Shown: piece after piece, positions 23,842 through 31,174 of the stretch
Numbering within the stretch: the stretch's first letter is position 1
Layout: each line of letters opens with the position of its first letter
DNA from: Fervidobacterium sp.
Lineage (GTDB): Bacteria; Thermotogota; Thermotogae; Thermotogales; Fervidobacteriaceae
Reading direction: 5' to 3'
DNA: 64,000 nt
NCBI GenBank assembly: GCA_049970055.1
Contig: JBMFNR010000002.1
Coordinates: 116,406-180,405 of the forward strand
Made by a program: the position numbers and the translations under genes
Notes under the pieces: model-generated
The model's database searches: none
Seen by the model: only the letters and a program-made list of their open reading frames with translations
Told to the model about the DNA's origin: nothing

Positions 23842-25071
23842 CTAACAATGACCGATAAAATCAATGATATCTTCGTCAAATTTTCTCAGAGAATTAGTTA
23901 AGAATTCTGTTCTTTTTATGGTTTCCTCAACGTTTTTCGCAGCAAATCCATTTCCGCACGGAATATTAACATTTTTTAATGCCAACTTGGAAGCATTTAA
24001 AGCCATCTGAGTGCCGATACTTGCTTTCAAAGCGCACCCTCTTTTAGCTCCATCACAAGTAATGCCAAAAAGTGTAGCGAGGACGTTATTTATAGAATTT
24101 TTTATCTGCTCACTACCCCCACCTGAAAGATAAGTAATTGCGGCACTGCTCCCAGCTGAGGCTATGGAGCCTGCACCACAGATCGGTGTTAAGACACCCG
24201 TGTAAGCTTTTATATAAATTGTTACAAGTATACTCAATATAACAGCCTTTTGAATTCTATCTTCAGCAACGTTATTATTCAACCCGTACAAAGCGGGTGG
24301 TACGATACAAGAGATACCTTGATTTCCACTGCCCGCAACTGTCATTACAGGGATCAAAGCTCCACTCATTCGTTCATCTACACCAGCAGCTACATATGCT
24401 GGGATACCTTCTTCTAGTGCAAAGCCAAAGTTACCTTCTTTCTTTAGACCTTGTTTTGCCGCATTTAAGTTGTAAGTTATCCCTTCTTTTACCAACTCTA
24501 TAACATCATCGTGTGGATTTTCAATGTATTTTAGTAAATCATTTAATGTGATTGATTTTATAGAGTCTTTTTTAAAACTTACACTTGTCTGCGTGTTCAA
24601 AATTTCTTTTCCGTCAACAGTGATTTTGCTTACATTGTCGTGAGAATCTGTTATTTCGACTAAAACTTCATTGGCAGCTTTTAATCTTGTTTTTATATGC
24701 AAGTTGTATGAATTTTCGTATTTTATACTTACCTTTTCTTTCAATAAATAAGCGGCTGATAAGGCTTTTGAATCAACGTCCTTAAAAACTTGTAATCCTA
24801 ACTCATATTTTCCAACGATATAAGCCAGAGCAGCTGCAAGTTCAAAACCATGAAGATGCGTACCTGGAATACCAACTTCCAATCCATTCTTGTATGTGTT
24901 CCTATCCATTGCAACTTCAATACTTTCCAGTTCGCCTTTTAAGTACTTTTTCCCAACAGCAACAGATAAACCAACAGCAACAGGTTCTGTGCATCCGTAA
25001 GACAACTTAACGTTGTCGAAGAATATTTCTCTAATAATATCAAAATTATTCAGGTTGTTTAAATTCTTCAT
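23842..25071 (-). CDS. L-cysteine desulfidase (CyuA/CdsB-like, serine dehydratase alpha family)
   Basis: GCTEP, GSGNQG, PICG, CDGAKRGCALK. ATGA overlap with metF. Confidence 0.85.
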   Translation of the reverse strand: MKNLNNLNNFDIIREIFFDNVKLSYGCTEPVAVGLSVAVGKKYLKGELESIEVAMDRNTYKNGLEVGIPGTHLHGFELAAALAYIVGKYELGLQVFKDVDSKALSAAYLLKEKVSIKYENSYNLHIKTRLKAANEVLVEITDSHDNVSKITVDGKEILNTQTSVSFKKDSIKSITLNDLLKYIENPHDDVIELVKEGITYNLNAAKQGLKKEGNFGFALEEGIPAYVAAGVDERMSGALIPVMTVAGSGNQGISCIVPPALYGLNNNVAEDRIQKAVILSILVTIYIKAYTGVLTPICGAGSIASAGSSAAITYLSGGGSEQIKNSINNVLATLFGITCDGAKRGCALKASIGTQMALNASKLALKNVNIPCGNGFAAKNVEETIKRTEFLTNSLRKFDEDIIDFIGHC

Positions 25072-26003
25072 ACCGTAGCCTCCCTGAGGATTGTACAAAC
25101 TTCTTCGCCTCGTCCCATAGTAAATATATGAACACCCGGTGCACCTGCGTCAAAAAGTTCCTCGATAAGTTTAATGGTAAATTTTACTCCATTTCTGAAT
25201 TCTTCATCTTCCGATTTAGCATCTTCCATGAGGCTTACAAGTTCTTGGGGAATACTAACAAAGAATTTTTTCGGTATCGAATAAATTGATCTTTTACTAA
25301 CCACAGGCTTTACACCTGGAATAATGGGAACATCAATTCCACTCTCTCTACACTTATTAACAAAGTTTTTGTAAATTTCTGCTTCAAAAATCATTTGAGT
25401 AATTACAAACTGTGCTCCATTATCAACTTTTTCTTTTAAAACTTTCAAATCTACCTCGATATTTGGAGATCCAAAATGTTTTTCCGGATAACCAGCAACT
25501 CCTATGCAAAAATTTGTTGGTTTAGCTTTTGTATAAAGATAACTACCGCGATTCATAGATGAGATCTGTCTCACAAGTTCCACTGCATATTTATAATCGC
25601 CTTTAATTTTTGTTTCATTGGTTGCCTCTCCATGCACAACAAAAACATTCTCAATACCCATAATAGAAAGGTCTATGAGTATCTCTTCCATTTCGAATTT
25701 GTTCATACCTTTACAAACCAAATGCGGCACAACATCGATATTGTACCTCTTCATAAGAGCAGCAGTCAAACCGATTGTGCCCGGTCTTTTAACCTTTTGG
25801 ACCTTTATAATTCCATTTTTTGTTTCCAAATATTCAATTTCAACTGGATGCCTTGTTATGTTAATGAAAGATATATCATACTTCACTAGTCTATCAAGTG
25901 TGGAAAATACATTTTCAACATCTTCGCCTCTTTTGGGAGGAATTATCTCTATTGAAATTATCCTTTTATTTCTCAGTTTATCCACTACCTTCACATTTGA
26001 CAC
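25068..26003 (-). CDS. metF: Methylenetetrahydrofolate reductase
   Basis: SIEIIPP, VPHLVC, VAGYPEKH, KEKVDNGAQFVITQ, GVHIFTM. Confidence 0.92.
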   Translation of the reverse strand: MSNVKVVDKLRNKRIISIEIIPPKRGEDVENVFSTLDRLVKYDISFINITRHPVEIEYLETKNGIIKVQKVKRPGTIGLTAALMKRYNIDVVPHLVCKGMNKFEMEEILIDLSIMGIENVFVVHGEATNETKIKGDYKYAVELVRQISSMNRGSYLYTKAKPTNFCIGVAGYPEKHFGSPNIEVDLKVLKEKVDNGAQFVITQMIFEAEIYKNFVNKCRESGIDVPIIPGVKPVVSKRSIYSIPKKFFVSIPQELVSLMEDAKSEDEEFRNGVKFTIKLIEELFDAGAPGVHIFTMGRGEEVCTILREATV

Positions 26004-26006
26004 CTC

Positions 26007-26747
26007 TCACATTTCAATTTTAATATTTCCCAAAACGCCTAATCTATCGTTATATGCCACCACTATACCCTCGATGTGTTTTCCAATAGTGTTTTGCGCT
26101 TTTTCTAAAACAATTTTAATATCGTCCACAGATCTTACCATATTTGCAAATTTTGTTGCAAATGCATCGGCAATAGCTGCATCCTTAGCTACTACAACAA
26201 CAATGTCTGCGTTTCCGAAACTAAGCGAGTGCCCTATCTTTCCTGACGAACTACAAACACCATATTCACCTGGACCGATGACCAAAGAAACTTTGTTAAA
26301 ATCACTCTCAAAATTTGCAAAAATACCTATCCTTGTTTCGTCTTTTGAGTTTATATATATATCTCCACCATTTTCAATAATAACTTTCTCACACTCAAAC
26401 TTCTTAATTAAACTTTCTCCGATTATCTTTGCGAATGTTCCTGCAACACTTGCCATTGGTCCAACTTCCGCTAATCGTGAAGCTTCAACCATTATGCGCG
26501 CAACTTTAGGCATTTTCGGATTCGAATAAATTGGTTTCAAAGATTCATAGAAGTGTTTATCTACTTGTATGTAATCATATAGTGTATTGTACAATTTTTT
26601 GGCTAATTCATATGTATAATCAAGCATTTCGATAGAAAAAATATTTGACCGGATCCACAGATCTGTATATTTGTACTTCACATGGAAGTTTTGGAGATTA
26701 TCTGAAAATTTTTCGCGGTAAGACCTTTTCATTATTGGTATTTTCAC
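26007..26747 (-). CDS. UPF0280 / ApbE-like protein (COG2122)
   Basis: VGPMASVAG, IENGGDI, CSSSGKIGHSLSFGNAD, ADAFAT. Confidence 0.88.
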   Translation of the reverse strand: MKIPIMKRSYREKFSDNLQNFHVKYKYTDLWIRSNIFSIEMLDYTYELAKKLYNTLYDYIQVDKHFYESLKPIYSNPKMPKVARIMVEASRLAEVGPMASVAGTFAKIIGESLIKKFECEKVIIENGGDIYINSKDETRIGIFANFESDFNKVSLVIGPGEYGVCSSSGKIGHSLSFGNADIVVVVAKDAAIADAFATKFANMVRSVDDIKIVLEKAQNTIGKHIEGIVVAYNDRLGVLGNIKIEM

Positions 26748-26772: not shown

Positions 26773-28159
26773 TTAGTATGCGGTACTTTCGAATTTATTG
26801 TTTAATCCTTTTTCGTATGGCAACGTCAAATGTTCAGGACAGACATCGCTACATATCAAGCATTCCTTGCACTTCACAGTTTCGAAAAGAACCTCATCTC
26901 CTTTAAAGTAAAGTGCATCGTATTTACAAACACTAACACATGCTCCGCAGTGAAAACATGTCTTTACTAGCTTTTCTTTCAACTCCATGTAAGATTCTTC
27001 CATTGCTTCAGTCGCAAAGGAAACTTGGGCAAGATTCTTAAGTCTCCTTTCTTCCGATAACTTCTCAACAGCACTTGTTAAGAAAAAGTGCCCACTCTCC
27101 ATCCAATCTTTAAGTACCAAAGCAATCTGTCTAGCTTTTTTCAAACTTGAAAGTGGGCTTGTCTTAACTTTTTTTCCATTTATTTCAACATAACCACTCC
27201 GAAGCTCTTCATAACTTACAATCTTAACTAATGGTTTATCTATCTTCGAATAATCTCTTATCTCTGTATGTATCCTACTATTTGGTAAACTTACATAGTA
27301 GGCTATCTCTTCATCGAGAACAGGTATCGGTACACCTACGCCAACAAACAAAGTTACACCGTAGTTCTTAAAATACGCTCCTTTTATAAATTCTGAGCTC
27401 ATCTTCTTTGCATCTCCGACAAGTGCAAGTGTACGTGAAGCAATCAAAGGCACACCATATTCATTTTCTTTTACAATGTTTCTGAATTGTGTCCCATACC
27501 ATGCTATGTAGCCAATACCACCACCTAGGAATATTCTTGTACCAATCCCCATGGTTAAAAGTTTTGGATCCTTCAACAAAGGACTGAGCTCTCCCGAAGT
27601 TGAATAAATAATGTTACCATACTGTGGAAGAAGTTTTCCCATGTAAGTGTACAATATTTTATCTGAACCGTTAGTTGCAGCGGTATAGTTTTGATAAGCA
27701 TTTCTTGGATTGAACAAGAAAAAGTCGTTAATCATATCTTTGTCTATGTACGCCTTGAAATATTTTCCTGGATAACAATCCGTACCTTTTCCCCAAGCTT
27801 CGAGAAGTACCCTTTCACCTTATAATGAGCAATTCTATTATATGCCCACCACCAAAAGTTTTATCATAATCAGATTCTTGCGTTGCTCCAATGTAGCCAT
27901 CTACAGCGGCAATTCCTCCGTAGACATCCACTCCTCCAAGTTTTATCTTTTCCATTCTCATAGGTGGTAGAGTATGACCGAAGTTCATAAAAGCTCCACT
28001 CGAACACATAGGTGCAAACGTACCTGTTGTAACCACATCCACCTTTCTTGCAATTTCCTTAAATCCTTCTTCTTTTGACAATTTAACAACTTCTTCTGCT
28101 GTTAATATCACTGCTTTGCCTTCGGCAATTTTTTTGTTGATTTCTTCAATAGTTTTCAT
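26773..28159 (-). pseudogene. DUF39 homocysteine biosynthesis protein (aspartate semialdehyde sulfurtransferase family) fused to 2x[4Fe-4S] ferredoxin; single frameshift
   Basis: MKTIEEINKKI..VDVVTTGTFAPMCSSG, then a one-base shift near 27820-27824 into GERVLLEAWGKGTDCYP..NPRNAYQNY. C-terminal CxxCxxCxxxC twice. Confidence 0.85.
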
Positions 28160-29292
28160 CACTGCTTGCACCCCCATATATATTATTGTTTTTGTCCGTG
28201 CCGAAAAATTCGCGATGTACTAAAGCAAGTGCTTCCTTATGTAAAGCCATACGGGAAGCGATTTCGCTCAAGATACCTGGTATCGTTCCAAAGTTGTGTC
28301 CTCTAAATTGCACGATTGAAATATCATCGGTCATTGAAATGCTCTTAATACAAGACATCAAATCATACTTGTGAATTTCACTTTCGTCTTCGCTTTCGCT
28401 TATTACAGTACATGCCAAATTACCATCAAGATGAATGCACTTATGCGCTTTTTTTTAAGATTTCATAACCGCAGAAACGGTATGTTTTTCGTTCTCAACG
28501 GTTCTACCGCATTGTGATGAATAATCTTCGCACCAAAATAAGACAACTCGTCTTCTTCGTCATAACTTAATTTTCTAACATTCTTTGAAAAACCTGTTAC
28601 CTTTGGATCACCTGAAAGAAAGCCAGGTACATCTTTTATCAAGATAACAGCTTTAGCATCTAAGCAGTATCCAAGAATAGTTGCTGTATAGTCACTTCCG
28701 CCGCGCCCAAGAATAGTGATATCTCCGTTAATACCAGACTTTCCGTAAAATCCTGGGACTATAAAATTTCCAATGCTTATTTCTTCTTTTAGATTTTCAA
28801 GCATTATTTTACTTTTTTCGAGAATTACACTCGCATTCCCATACTTTCCATTTGTTATTAAAAGATTCTCGGGTATATGATATTAAAGTCCATTCCGATA
28901 ATATTTGCAATTTTACTCACTATAAATTCCCCTGAACTTACAACTCTATCGTAAGCGAACTCTGGCACTTTTTTCAGCATTTTACAACCTTTCAAAATAT
29001 TATCCAAAGAAAAGATTTCTTTTTTTAAAGACAAATCGTCATTATCGAGAAATTTTTTATGAAAGTCATACATTTCGTATAAGAAATCTTCAATTCTTAT
29101 TTTGTTGATATTCTTCATAGCACTTATAATTTTATCGGTTACACCTTTTAGCGCACTAACAACTATGAACAACTGAACTTCTTTTTCTGTACCGTTGAGT
29201 TTTATTTTTCTTATAGAGCCAAGAATACTCAGTAAATTATCCCTAGAATCAAGTATAGAACCACCTATCTTCACAACTACCCTGCTCACCAT
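28146..29292 (-). pseudogene. Aspartate kinase, multiply disrupted
   Basis: VVKIGGS, VVSALKGVTD, SSGE / PGFYG, LGRGGSDYTA, DVPG..SGDP, ELSYFGAK / truncated ACT, spread over three ORFs. Shifts near 28870 and 28460. Confidence 0.88.
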
Positions 29293-29353
29293 CTTACACC
29301 TCCAAAAATTCTAAAAATAATAGTTATATTGCATTTTTTTGAAAATGTGGTAT

Positions 29354-29386
29354 AAAAAAAGCGGTCGGCTTTTGAAACCGACCGCT
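29354..29386 (-). terminator. Intrinsic terminator (attenuator) upstream of the Met operon
   Basis: Minus strand GCGGTCGGTT-TCAA-AGCCGACCGC followed by T7, about 60 nt before the aspartate kinase start. Confidence 0.88.
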
Positions 29387-29414
29387 GGTTTTTTGTAAAA
29401 CCAAAGTGGTGTAC

Positions 29415-29522
29415 CTATGTCTTCCAGCGATCGGTACACCACATCATTATAGACATCATATCAAAACTAACTTGAAGTTGTGCTTTTACATTTCTCCCAA
29501 GCACATTCGCAAGTATATCCAT
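29415..29522 (-). CDS. Putative Met-rich leader peptide (35 aa) MDILANVLGRNVKAQLQVSFDMMSIMMWCTDRWKT
   Basis: ATG 29522, TAG 29415-29417, GAGAGG RBS at 29532-29537. Four ATG codons in six positions directly before the alternative hairpins. Confidence 0.78.
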   Translation of the reverse strand: MDILANVLGRNVKAQLQVSFDMMSIMMWCTDRWKT

Positions 29523-29577
29523 AACTTTGGACCTCTCGGATCAAAAATAAAACGTGAGCTTGTTTTATTTGAGAAAG

Positions 29578-29605
29578 ATTATACAATAACTTTTCGAAAA
29601 ATCAA
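29578..29605 (-). promoter_or_regulatory. Sigma70-type promoter of leader/Met operon
   Basis: TTGATT-16 nt-TATAAT on the minus strand. Confidence 0.65.
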
Positions 29606-29632
29606 GTGCTTAAAAACATGGGGTGACTGTAA

Positions 29633-29917
29633 ATGTCTGAGATATTTGAAATTTGGAAAAAGTGGAACGTTAGGGGAATTGTACAAGGTGTAGGGTTCAG
29701 ACATTTTGTGAAAAACACGGCAAGGGCATTGGGTTTGAAAGGCTATGTAAAAAACGAAGAAGATGGAAGTGTCACAATCGTTGCAGGTGGAAATACTGAA
29801 CAGATAAAAGAACTTTTCAAAAAGATTATGGAAGGTAATGGGTGGAGTTATGTATCAGATTACGATGAAGAAGACCTACCAACTCAAGATTATAAAGATT
29901 TTCATGTAGAATTTTAG
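29633..29917 (+). CDS. acyP: Acylphosphatase
   Basis: GIVQGVGFR, GYVKNEEDGSV. Confidence 0.92.
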   Translation: MSEIFEIWKKWNVRGIVQGVGFRHFVKNTARALGLKGYVKNEEDGSVTIVAGGNTEQIKELFKKIMEGNGWSYVSDYDEEDLPTQDYKDFHVEF

Positions 29918-29956
29918 ATTTTTACTTAATTATACAGGGGAAGGAGTTGAACCAGA

Positions 29957-31174
29957 ATGAACATAGTATGTTACGGATTACAGTGGGGGGACGAAGGAAA
30001 AGGTAAGGTAACGACGTATCTTTCGAAAGATTTTCATTACGTTGTAAGGTATGGTGGCGGAAGTAACGCGGGTCATACGGTCGAGTACGGTGATTTTAAG
30101 CTTATACATCACCTGATCCCCTCATTTGATGTTAGAAAAAATGTTAAAGGGTACATTGCAGATGGTGTTGTTCTTGACTTGGAGGTTTTTTTGAAGGAAA
30201 TTGAAGAACTTTCGAAACTTGGCTATAATGTAGAGGATCGAATAAGCATTTCCGCGCTCGCACATATTGTATTACCAGTCCACAAAATGCTTGATGAAAA
30301 GTTGGAATTGTTAAAAGATAAGAAAGCAATTGGAACAACAAAACGAGGAATTGGGCCAGCATATGCTGATAAGGTGCATAGAATTGGTGTGAGAGTGCTG
30401 GATCTATTTGATTATTCAAGTGCTGTTGAGAAGTTGGAATTTATTTCACGTTTGTACAAAAGGCTCTACGGTATTGAGTGGTACAGTTACGATGAAGTAT
30501 TCGAAAAATTTGAGAAGATAAAAATGTATGTTGTTTCACCAATCCAAATGAAGAAGGTTTTTGAAAATTCTAAAGTATTGTTTGAAGGAACACAAGGCGT
30601 TTTACTTGATGTGGATGTGGGAAGTTACCCATATGTGACTGGTACTCAGTGCAATACAACAGGTGTCGGAAGCGGTGTAGGATTTCCTGTAAAGATCGAC
30701 AAGAGAATTGGTGTGTTTAAAGCTTATTTGACACGTGTTGGAGAAGGTCCGTTTCCAACAGAGTTATTTGATGAAGAAGCTGAATTACTCAGAAAAGCGG
30801 GTAAAGAATACGGTTCAACAACTGGAAGGCCAAGAAGATGTGGCTGGTTAGACTTGCCCATTTTAAGATATGCAGTTGAAGTCTCTAATTGTGATGAGAT
30901 GATAATGACGAAATCGGATGTTTTGAGTGGATTGGAAAAAGTGAAAGTCGGAGTTAGGTATGTTCTTGAAGGTAAAAAAATAGATATGCCTTTTGATCTT
31001 TCTTACTTGGACAAAGTCGAAGTAGAATACGCTGAGCTTAATGGTTGGAAAAGCCTCGAAGATGATAATTTTTTGAAGTTTCTTGATTTTATAGAGGCGG
31101 AGATGGGTTTAAAGGTAACTTACATATCAATTGGTGCAAAAGTAGACGAAATAAGGATTTTGAAAGGAGGTTAA
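29957..31174 (+). CDS. purA: Adenylosuccinate synthetase
   Basis: [40 protein letters not shown]. Confidence 0.96.

Follow-up and report, generated by a model that had tools for sequence, protein, structure and literature searches.

A probable methionine-sensing leader-peptide attenuator before the aspartokinase/HcyBio operon of Fervidobacterium, with counterparts across Thermotogota

The leader and its elements

The window analysed here is a 64,000-nucleotide stretch of Fervidobacterium sp. DNA (contig JBMFNR010000002.1, positions 116,406 to 180,405). On its minus strand, an operon that begins with an aspartokinase gene and the HcyBio gene is preceded by a short leader, which contains a small reading frame with a run of methionine codons and a set of helices ending in an intrinsic terminator. 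From the sequence, we read this leader as what is probably a ribosome-mediated, methionine-sensing leader-peptide transcription attenuator, and one that probably governs the operon for making homocysteine and methionine by the aspartokinase/HcyBio route. The reading is based on conserved Met runs, covarying helices, recurrence in 14 genera and the geometry of the ribosome footprint. It keeps the core of an original prediction made for this locus; the protector role that the prediction gave to one helix and the cysteine input that it suggested are not supported, and two genes of the operon are broken in this genome.

The elements are described in order along the minus strand. The leader opens with a sigma-70-type promoter, TTGATT-16-TATAAT (29605..29578), which matches the consensus at 10 of 12 positions and ranks first among the eight promoter-like sites in 28800-30200; a similar promoter is seen in the leader sequences of relatives. 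A Shine-Dalgarno (SD)-like GAGAGG (29537-29532) stands 9 nucleotides (nt) before the ATG at 29522, where an upstream open reading frame (uORF) of 35 codons begins (29522..29415). It reads MDILANVLGRNVKAQLQVSFDMMSIMMWCTDRWKT, closes with a TAG stop and has DMMSIMMWCTDRWKT as its C-terminal end. The presumptive regulatory codons are ATG ATG TCT ATA ATG ATG (29459..29442), in which the ATG pairs at 29459-29454 and 29447-29442 encode Met22, Met23, Met26 and Met27.

Three helices can be drawn in the remaining RNA. The first, hairpin P1, pairs GTGGTGTACC (29442-29433) with GGTACACCAC (29415-29406) in 10 bp around a 17-nt loop, and has an energy of -16.7 to -17.3 kcal/mol at 37 C in the energy model. 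A U-rich stretch, TTTGGTTTT, follows directly 3' of P1, and a terminator detector flagged the hairpin as terminator-like. Most of the 5' arm of the second helix, the antiterminator, is contained in the P1 loop. This arm, ACCGATCGCTGG (29435-29424), corresponds to uORF codons 30-33, and it pairs with CCAGCGGTCGGT (29388-29377) in 12 bp including one G-U. The 3' arm in turn overlaps the 5' arm of the third helix, the intrinsic terminator (29386..29354), which consists of a 12-bp stem (29386..29360) with a 3-nt loop and a T7 tail, and which is the sole terminator-like site within the 1.4 kb scanned. The fold of the whole leader beats 200 of 200 shuffles (z = -5.1).

Promoter, ribosome-binding site, uORF and stems all have the positions and sequences given in the original prediction, and these elements are real. 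The three stems had also been called mutually exclusive. All three are present, but the overlap of P1 and the antiterminator is 3 nt (ACC, 29435-29433); because it is so short, these two helices are not fully exclusive by sequence.

An acylphosphatase gene (29633-29917, plus strand) begins 28 nt past the -35 box of the leader, on the opposite strand. Since it starts so close, it shares a very short divergent control region with the leader transcript. The same divergent layout is found in a related genome, G008 (L002).

Conservation and covariation in the Fervidobacterium group

A DNA search of 41 related genomes returns matches that run mainly from the Met run to just past the terminator; in one relative the promoter region is matched as well. 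Scanning 151 genomes of the phylum with a motif gives 14 matches, of which 12 are this leader and two are chance matches within coding sequence. The 12 leaders come from 10 of the 13 genomes of the genus (this one included) and both genomes of the sister genus. A pattern scan of a contig collection finds the leader in records of F. islandicum H-21 and F. thailandense FC2004 and in metagenome-assembled genomes: seven of its 38 matches are Fervidobacterium or Thermotogota records, and the 31 in unrelated phyla are at about the chance level estimated for 17 fixed bases.

The 11 relatives carry ATG ATG NNN ATG ATG ATG, invariant in alignment A2, so that ATG makes up five of the six codons of the run there and four of six here. 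An in-frame start, reading frame and TAG stop are listed for seven of the 12 close leaders, and all seven have an SD-like motif before the start. The uORFs of the relatives are 30-58 codons long. Their C-terminal parts share MMxMMM[WR][CR]TDR, and the first two-thirds of the peptide is unrelated between species. All three helices are kept in 12 of 12 leaders, with energies at 37 C of -13.9 to -17.9 kcal/mol for P1, -17.7 to -22.1 kcal/mol for the terminator and -22.7 to -25.8 kcal/mol for the antiterminator duplex. In-frame Met codons and covarying stems upstream of orthologous operons, the comparison that had been proposed as a check, are thus both found.

Covariation was computed on the 12 sequences of alignment A2. 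In the antiterminator, 89.6% of cells are paired and four of the 12 pairs have changed on both sides; in the terminator, 96.5% of cells are paired and three pairs have changed on both sides; the kinship of the sequences means that these counts overstate independence. The antiterminator covariation score is 0.308, compared with 0.145 in shuffles (0 of 500 reach the observed value) and at most 0.104 when the arms are slid. Two antiterminator pairs covary even though their 3' partners, alignment columns 72-73, are not part of the terminator stem, and here the encoded residue changes (W/R/P) with pairing kept. At one position all three arms change together: C/T in both the coding arm and the terminator 3' arm, and G/A in the arm that the two helices share. 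P1 retains an 8-bp core in 12 of 12 leaders. In one clade its GGTGTACC/GGTACACC has become GGCGTACC/GGTATGCC through one compensatory substitution and one shift from G-C to G-U, in effect a single evolutionary event.

Recurrence across Thermotogota

HcyBio is present in 64 of the 151 genomes, which represent 23 of 48 genera. Of these 64, 62 were examined upstream of the operon; in the other two the operon lies at a contig start. The detector looked for an SD-led ORF of 8-90 codons with at least two Met within 7 codons, ending within 110 nt upstream of, or inside, an intrinsic-terminator hairpin, and was combined with inspection by eye. A Met-run uORF followed by an intrinsic terminator is found in 35 of the 62 genomes, from 14 genera and seven families. 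One further leader (G007), additional to the 35, lies at a contig end. Two detector matches were rejected as spurious: the one in L084 is an ORF of 80 codons, and the one in L106 has 10 codons and a hairpin of -7.0 kcal/mol.

Outside the Fervidobacterium group the runs consist of two to five in-frame Met within 7 codons. The peptide core is MMxMMM, W or R, C or R, then TDR in this genus and its sister genus. It is MMIMCG in genera g5 and g4, (A)MIM followed by C or R in g7, MMMR in g25, MMMRWKAPG in g29, MMNTMMMRMMG in g47 and MMW in g19. The first gene behind the leader is aspartokinase, followed by Asd and HcyBio; in g7 the leader precedes a MetH operon that runs into aspartokinase-HcyBio. 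In all 35 leaders the sequence that directly follows the Met run is able to pair with the 5' arm of the terminator, a pairing matched by 0 of 200 shuffles in 18 of them and by at most 12 of 200 in the rest, and the last Met is 7-15 codons ahead of the stop.

The codon after the Met run is TGG, TGY or CGN (Trp, Cys, Arg) in 11 of 13 genera, and ATA often breaks the run (MMIM, MIM). Both patterns may stem from the G-rich start of the next helix and not from the peptide.

The S-adenosylmethionine (SAM) riboswitch SAM-I occurs in 15 of the 151 genomes, namely 14 of the 26 genomes of family f10 and G051, and is absent from this genome and all 23 others of its family. In f10 it lies upstream of the orthologous aspartokinase/HcyBio operon. 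Two genera of different families have SAM-I and the Met leader in series, in operon orientation: G127 (L080, 1520-1816) and G051 (L105, 2477-2765). The order in both is promoter, SAM-I aptamer, terminator, SD, Met-run uORF, second terminator and aspartokinase. The Met leader is thus a module of its own, which can be joined to a SAM sensor. G120 (L119) is a possible third case, with SAM-I, then an ORF beginning MSDMYNM and another terminator; as 20 nt separate its SD from the ATG, the uORF start is doubtful, and it was left uncounted.

Ribosome position and the choice of helix

The nascent RNA ending at the terminator 5' arm was folded for the 12 Fervidobacterium-group leaders, with a mask of -18 to +13 nt around the ribosomal A site, taken as the footprint of a ribosome. 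With the A site on the early Met codons, all antiterminator pairs form. The proportion is 90% on the next-to-last Met and 47% on the last Met; it is 0-3% one to three codons past the run and 8% on the stop codon. Given these percentages, the end of the Met run is the point where the ribosome starts hiding the antiterminator arm. Among the ribosome positions modelled, an A site on a Met codon is the only one that can let the antiterminator form, in 12 of 12 leaders. This modelled geometry, which played no part in finding the elements, is the strongest mechanistic argument for an attenuator.

We infer that the uORF is translated, that shortage of Met-tRNA stalls the ribosome on it, and that transcription and translation are coupled. 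Transcription would start at the 29605-29578 promoter, with a ribosome translating the 35-codon uORF close behind RNA polymerase. When charged elongator Met-tRNA is scarce, the ribosome would wait on Met22, 23, 26 or 27 and leave 29435-29424 uncovered, so that this arm could pair with 29388-29377 once the latter is made. The antiterminator would then take the 5' arm of the terminator, and the polymerase would read into the operon. When Met-tRNA is plentiful, the ribosome would pass the run toward the TAG and cover the arm; the terminator (29386-29360 with T7) would form and transcription would stop.

That stalling at Met codons frees the antiterminator had been predicted, and the masked folds agree with it in 12 of 12 leaders. 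The predicted route, in which the stalled ribosome blocks a protector hairpin, is not supported, because P1 overlaps the antiterminator arm by just those 3 nt and ribosome-free folds favour the antiterminator. P1 would more likely be a pause hairpin that synchronises polymerase and ribosome than a protector; alternatively, it may be a weak kinetic competitor or a weak anti-antiterminator. Truncated folds of the leader of this genome contain an extra hairpin, between the P1 3' arm and the terminator 5' arm. All three helices are stable at 65-75 C in the energy model, where the terminator still has -9.8 kcal/mol at 70 C. Taken together, the leader has an SD-led uORF, a cluster of cognate codons near the uORF end, an intrinsic terminator and, in the energy model, a competing antiterminator, which are features of a trp-type system.

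Weighing the attenuator

Several observations weigh against a methionine attenuator, or against its simplest form, and are gathered here. The first concern energetics. At equilibrium the full-length leader always adopts the terminator fold, whatever the ribosome mask; because the terminator is always favoured, control must be kinetic, as in trp. At 37 C, P1 falls short of the antiterminator by 2.4 kcal/mol (-17.3 vs -19.7), and in the energy model the nascent RNA without a ribosome folds into the antiterminator, not P1. With the 3-nt overlap, the weaker P1 and the ribosome-free antiterminator, the trp-like rule that no translation means termination is doubtful for this leader. A shortage of methionine would also affect initiation on the uORF itself, given the established role of fMet-tRNA.

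Other points concern the uORF and its Met content. Start sites are less convincing in some relatives: in G006 and G010 the SD stands 12-13 nt from the start codon, and G003 has an uncertain start. In this genome, where ATG makes up 1.6% of trinucleotide positions, there are seven clusters of at least four ATG within 6 codons, compared with about four expected by arithmetic from ATG frequency, so the Met run alone is not significant. What sets the leader cluster apart is its context: with 831 terminator-like sites scanned, it is the only one in a short SD-led uORF before an intrinsic terminator. The six others were rejected as leaders, being inside or across long ORFs or having no terminator. 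In the phylum survey, internal Met accounts for 12% of leader codons vs 2.1% in the long ORFs of this genome, an enrichment that is partly circular because the uORFs were selected on Met content.

The distribution is also incomplete, as 27 of the 62 HcyBio operons examined have no Met leader, including those of G001 and G012 in the same genus. Upstream of aspartokinase in G001 (L066) and G012 (L067) there is no Met uORF, terminator or Rfam match, and the aspartokinase-HcyBio operon sits behind a promoter-like TATAAT. Since all three elements are absent, the leader was lost or never gained in these two genomes. The leaderless operons further include 7 of 7 in g10, 2 of 2 in g11, seven in g24 and several with SAM-I only; those of g10, g11 and g24 are MetH-aspartokinase-HcyBio or aspartokinase-HcyBio operons. 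Neither a Met leader nor an Rfam element is found at L086-L088, L091, L093-L096 and L122 (g10, g11) or at L107-L113 (g24).

Finally, aspartokinase and HcyBio are broken in this genome, and the switch may guard a decaying operon.

The operon behind the leader

All operon genes are on the minus strand. The first, the aspartokinase gene (AA_kinase, 28242..29292), is spread over three frames and has lost about 120 C-terminal residues, the part that holds the ACT domains. It is followed by the gene for HcyBio (DUF39, 26773..28177), a homocysteine-synthesis enzyme with a fused 4Fe-4S ferredoxin domain, which has one frameshift near 27824-27819. Three intact genes (23842..26747) encode a 246-aa protein, methylenetetrahydrofolate reductase (MTHFR) and a 418-aa protein of the SDH_alpha family. 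The relatives have the same five genes in the same order and intact, with an aspartokinase of 460-490 aa; aspartokinase and HcyBio are both intact in 10 of 10 relatives examined. The expectation that the downstream genes are Met biosynthetic is thus right as to pathway, with the first two genes apparently inactivated in this genome.

The 246-aa protein (26007-26747, minus strand) has no Pfam match, either here or in G008. Its gene is kept between HcyBio and MTHFR in all Fervidobacterium-group operons examined, and because of this position the protein is likely to act in the homocysteine pathway.

Elsewhere in the genome there are a second, distant aspartokinase-like ORF and an intact MetH. No strong Cys_Met_Meta_PP match is found in this genome, so no alternative homocysteine route is evident. 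If the lesions are not assembly errors, this strain, with aspartokinase and HcyBio broken and no other route detected, may be auxotrophic for methionine.

These lesions bear on the alternative that survives best, which is that in this genome the leader is a relic: an intact element left without a regulatory job once its first two genes became pseudogenes. The three-frame aspartokinase, its missing C-terminal residues, the HcyBio frameshift and the lack of an evident alternative route all point that way. Against it, no part of the leader carries a disabling change and the three further genes are intact, and the single HcyBio frameshift may be a sequencing or assembly error. A search for sequencing runs returned two DNA metagenome runs of one study and none of RNA, and the seven short contigs recovered, at least 99% alike, reach neither the frameshift sites nor the leader core. 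We consider a relic rather unlikely, while giving it some weight; it would in any case describe function in this strain only, not the identity of the element.

Other signals and other sensors

A different possibility is that the leader does attenuate, but reports general translation speed or the supply of Trp or Cys, with the Met codons not acting as a specific sensor. In its favour, when one leader per genus is sampled, W, C or R follows the run in 11 of 13 genera, and a ribosome slowed there for whatever reason would have the same effect on the structure. In the masked folds, an A site on Trp28 or Cys29 covers the antiterminator arm, so that a stall there would favour termination. The Met run is moreover the one feature common to all lineages, and the controlled genes belong to the Met pathway. 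We therefore regard a Trp, Cys or speed signal as improbable. The narrower suggestion that the adjacent Cys codon adds a cysteine input to the methionine signal is likewise not supported, because a stall on Cys29 masks the arm and because the codon is CGT (Arg) in 5 of the 12 close leaders.

To compare the leader with known RNA sensors, the region 28800-30200 was scanned with Rfam at E values up to 10. The scan gave 14 matches, all below the gathering score, the best two on the terminator hairpin; none of them belongs to the SAM, T-box or amino-acid operon leader families. On the opposite strand there is a weak match to L20_leader (19.9 bits vs a gathering score of 58.7). Neither SAM-I (RF00162) nor T-box (RF00230) matches in the region or in the whole genome (1.87 Mb, 98.7% complete), and both models matched in control genomes. 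The Rfam check that had been proposed for excluding these sensors thus comes out clean, with no strong fit to a known riboswitch.

The leader might still be a small, undescribed riboswitch for SAM, methionine or homocysteine, with the AUG-rich stretch as part of the aptamer and the ORF incidental. In the Fervidobacterium group the sequence from the Met run as far as the terminator forms a highly conserved block (81% mean column identity in alignment A2), and terminator/antiterminator platforms are typical of riboswitches too. Besides the lack of a matching Rfam family, several findings speak against an aptamer and make it very improbable. The three helices and the ATG codons explain the conserved block in full, and conservation does not extend upstream of it. 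Between genera the sequences differ, and only the in-frame ATG run and the architecture recur. The ATGs are always multiples of three apart, with an in-frame upstream start listed, and in two genera the Met leader comes after a complete SAM-I riboswitch. A T-box-like element that binds uncharged tRNA-Met can be set aside almost entirely: GGUGUACCGACCGC superficially resembles the consensus T-box sequence and is located in the antiterminator, but the T-box model finds nothing in the genome, nor in the region at E values as high as 10, and the short, unconserved 5' part of the leader holds no conserved Stem I or specifier region.

Comparison with known systems

Leader-peptide attenuation is textbook knowledge for Trp, His, Leu, Thr, Phe and Ile/Val, whereas methionine genes are thought to be controlled by SAM riboswitches, T-boxes or the proteins MetJ, MetR and SahR. 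With the trp attenuator of Escherichia coli (trpL) and the other classical ones (his, leu, thr, pheA, ilv), the methionine leader shares a short SD-led uORF with a cluster of end-product codons near its end, an intrinsic terminator, an antiterminator that uses the terminator 5' arm, and kinetic control. It differs in that the amino acid sensed would be methionine and that no Rfam leader family matches. Unlike in trp, the hairpin here encloses the antiterminator arm (with the 3-nt overlap), and this genus shows no evident 1:2 anti-antiterminator; in two other genera, inspection by eye does reveal the classical 1:2/2:3/3:4 overlap. The leader very probably represents a known mechanism with a new amino-acid specificity and, locally, an unusual architecture; the element is widespread in Thermotogota.

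SAM-I (S-box) is the usual RNA control of methionine genes in Bacillota. The Met leader has in common with it the position before aspartokinase/HcyBio and an intrinsic-terminator output. It has no aptamer, and would respond to the charging of Met-tRNA, as sensed by the ribosome, and not to SAM. A T-box binds uncharged tRNA directly and needs no translation, the met leader of Staphylococcus aureus being a Met-specific example. Such a T-box would also sense tRNA-Met charging and act by antitermination of methionine biosynthesis, but no T-box model matches here. Another leader to compare is that of thrA in Pasteurellales, in which Vitreschak and co-workers are said to have noted Met codons in 2004 (a thr-type leader with several inputs), reportedly along with attenuators in Thermotogales. 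Their reported prediction, from comparative genomics, is likewise that Met codons may add methionine control to an aspartate-pathway gene; there, Met is one of several inputs, and the organisms are Proteobacteria.

In a full-text literature search we found no description of a leader-peptide attenuator for methionine biosynthesis, in line with the original prediction, whose author knew of no characterised Met-specific example; Vitreschak 2004, Lopatovskaya 2010 and Rodionov 2004 may bear on priority. The nearest case, going by the available text of the paper, is 'metL', a short leader ORF with several Met codons predicted ahead of metNIQ in Streptomyces lividans TK24, for which methionine attenuation has been proposed (PMC8079986). 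Its Met codons are scattered (..CMCRRMCAF), and the authors state that there is no typical terminator (PMC8079986). In that text metL belongs to an importer and is presented with neither conservation nor covariation; the leader described here has a dense Met run, a clear terminator and antiterminator, and phylum-wide recurrence. In the available portions of other surveys, Seliverstov et al. 2005 saw no RNA structures upstream of methionine operons in Actinobacteria (PMC1262725), no Met leader is mentioned by Naville and Gautheret 2010 or Sun et al. 2013 (PMC2965389, PMC3766115), and the met 5'UTR of Xanthomonas is described as SAM-I-like (PMC6230763).

Tentatively, the Met leader can be placed in a broader scheme, as a 'default-on' attenuator that was the ancestral methionine sensor of the HcyBio route in Thermotogota and that now replaces SAM-I or works in series with it. 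The suggestion comes from two features: the antiterminator arm has no upstream partner to sequester it, and the ribosome-free nascent RNA forms the antiterminator. If it is true, termination would need a ribosome that has passed the Met run, and both a stall at elongator AUG codons and a failure of fMet-tRNA initiation would switch the operon on, in contrast to a trp-type leader, which would shut off when initiation fails. The leader would then stand in place of SAM-I in most families and elsewhere form, in series with SAM-I, a two-input gate that reads SAM and Met-tRNA.

With Met leaders in 14 genera of Thermotogota, the ribosome would be used as a sensor of methionine too, which raises the question of how a translation-based sensor copes with the amino acid that is required for the start of translation. 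For the little-studied HcyBio/DUF39 route to homocysteine there is now a regulatory signature linking it to methionine, and the natural tandems, in which a Met leader comes after a SAM riboswitch, would join two read-outs of one pathway. For annotation, ORFs of 30-58 codons at such positions should be marked as leaders, not hypothetical proteins.

Other candidate leaders in this genome

The metH gene of this genome (C2:439164-441503) has no such Met leader. A candidate Thr leader with the residues TTT (C2:69184) was rejected, as it lies at the 3' end of a gene. Outside the window, on contig C1 (80882-81090, plus strand), there is a uORF that ends in MFWWWWTTGGCPPACCYCN and has Trp at four codons in a row; behind it come a strong terminator (-22.9 to -25.8 kcal/mol) and then a gene for a 438-aa protein. 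The hairpin 3' of the four Trp codons also encloses a candidate antiterminator arm, and by its sequence this leader is probably a Trp attenuator of the same design. With such a leader and its strong terminator present, leader-peptide attenuation seems to be in use in this genome.

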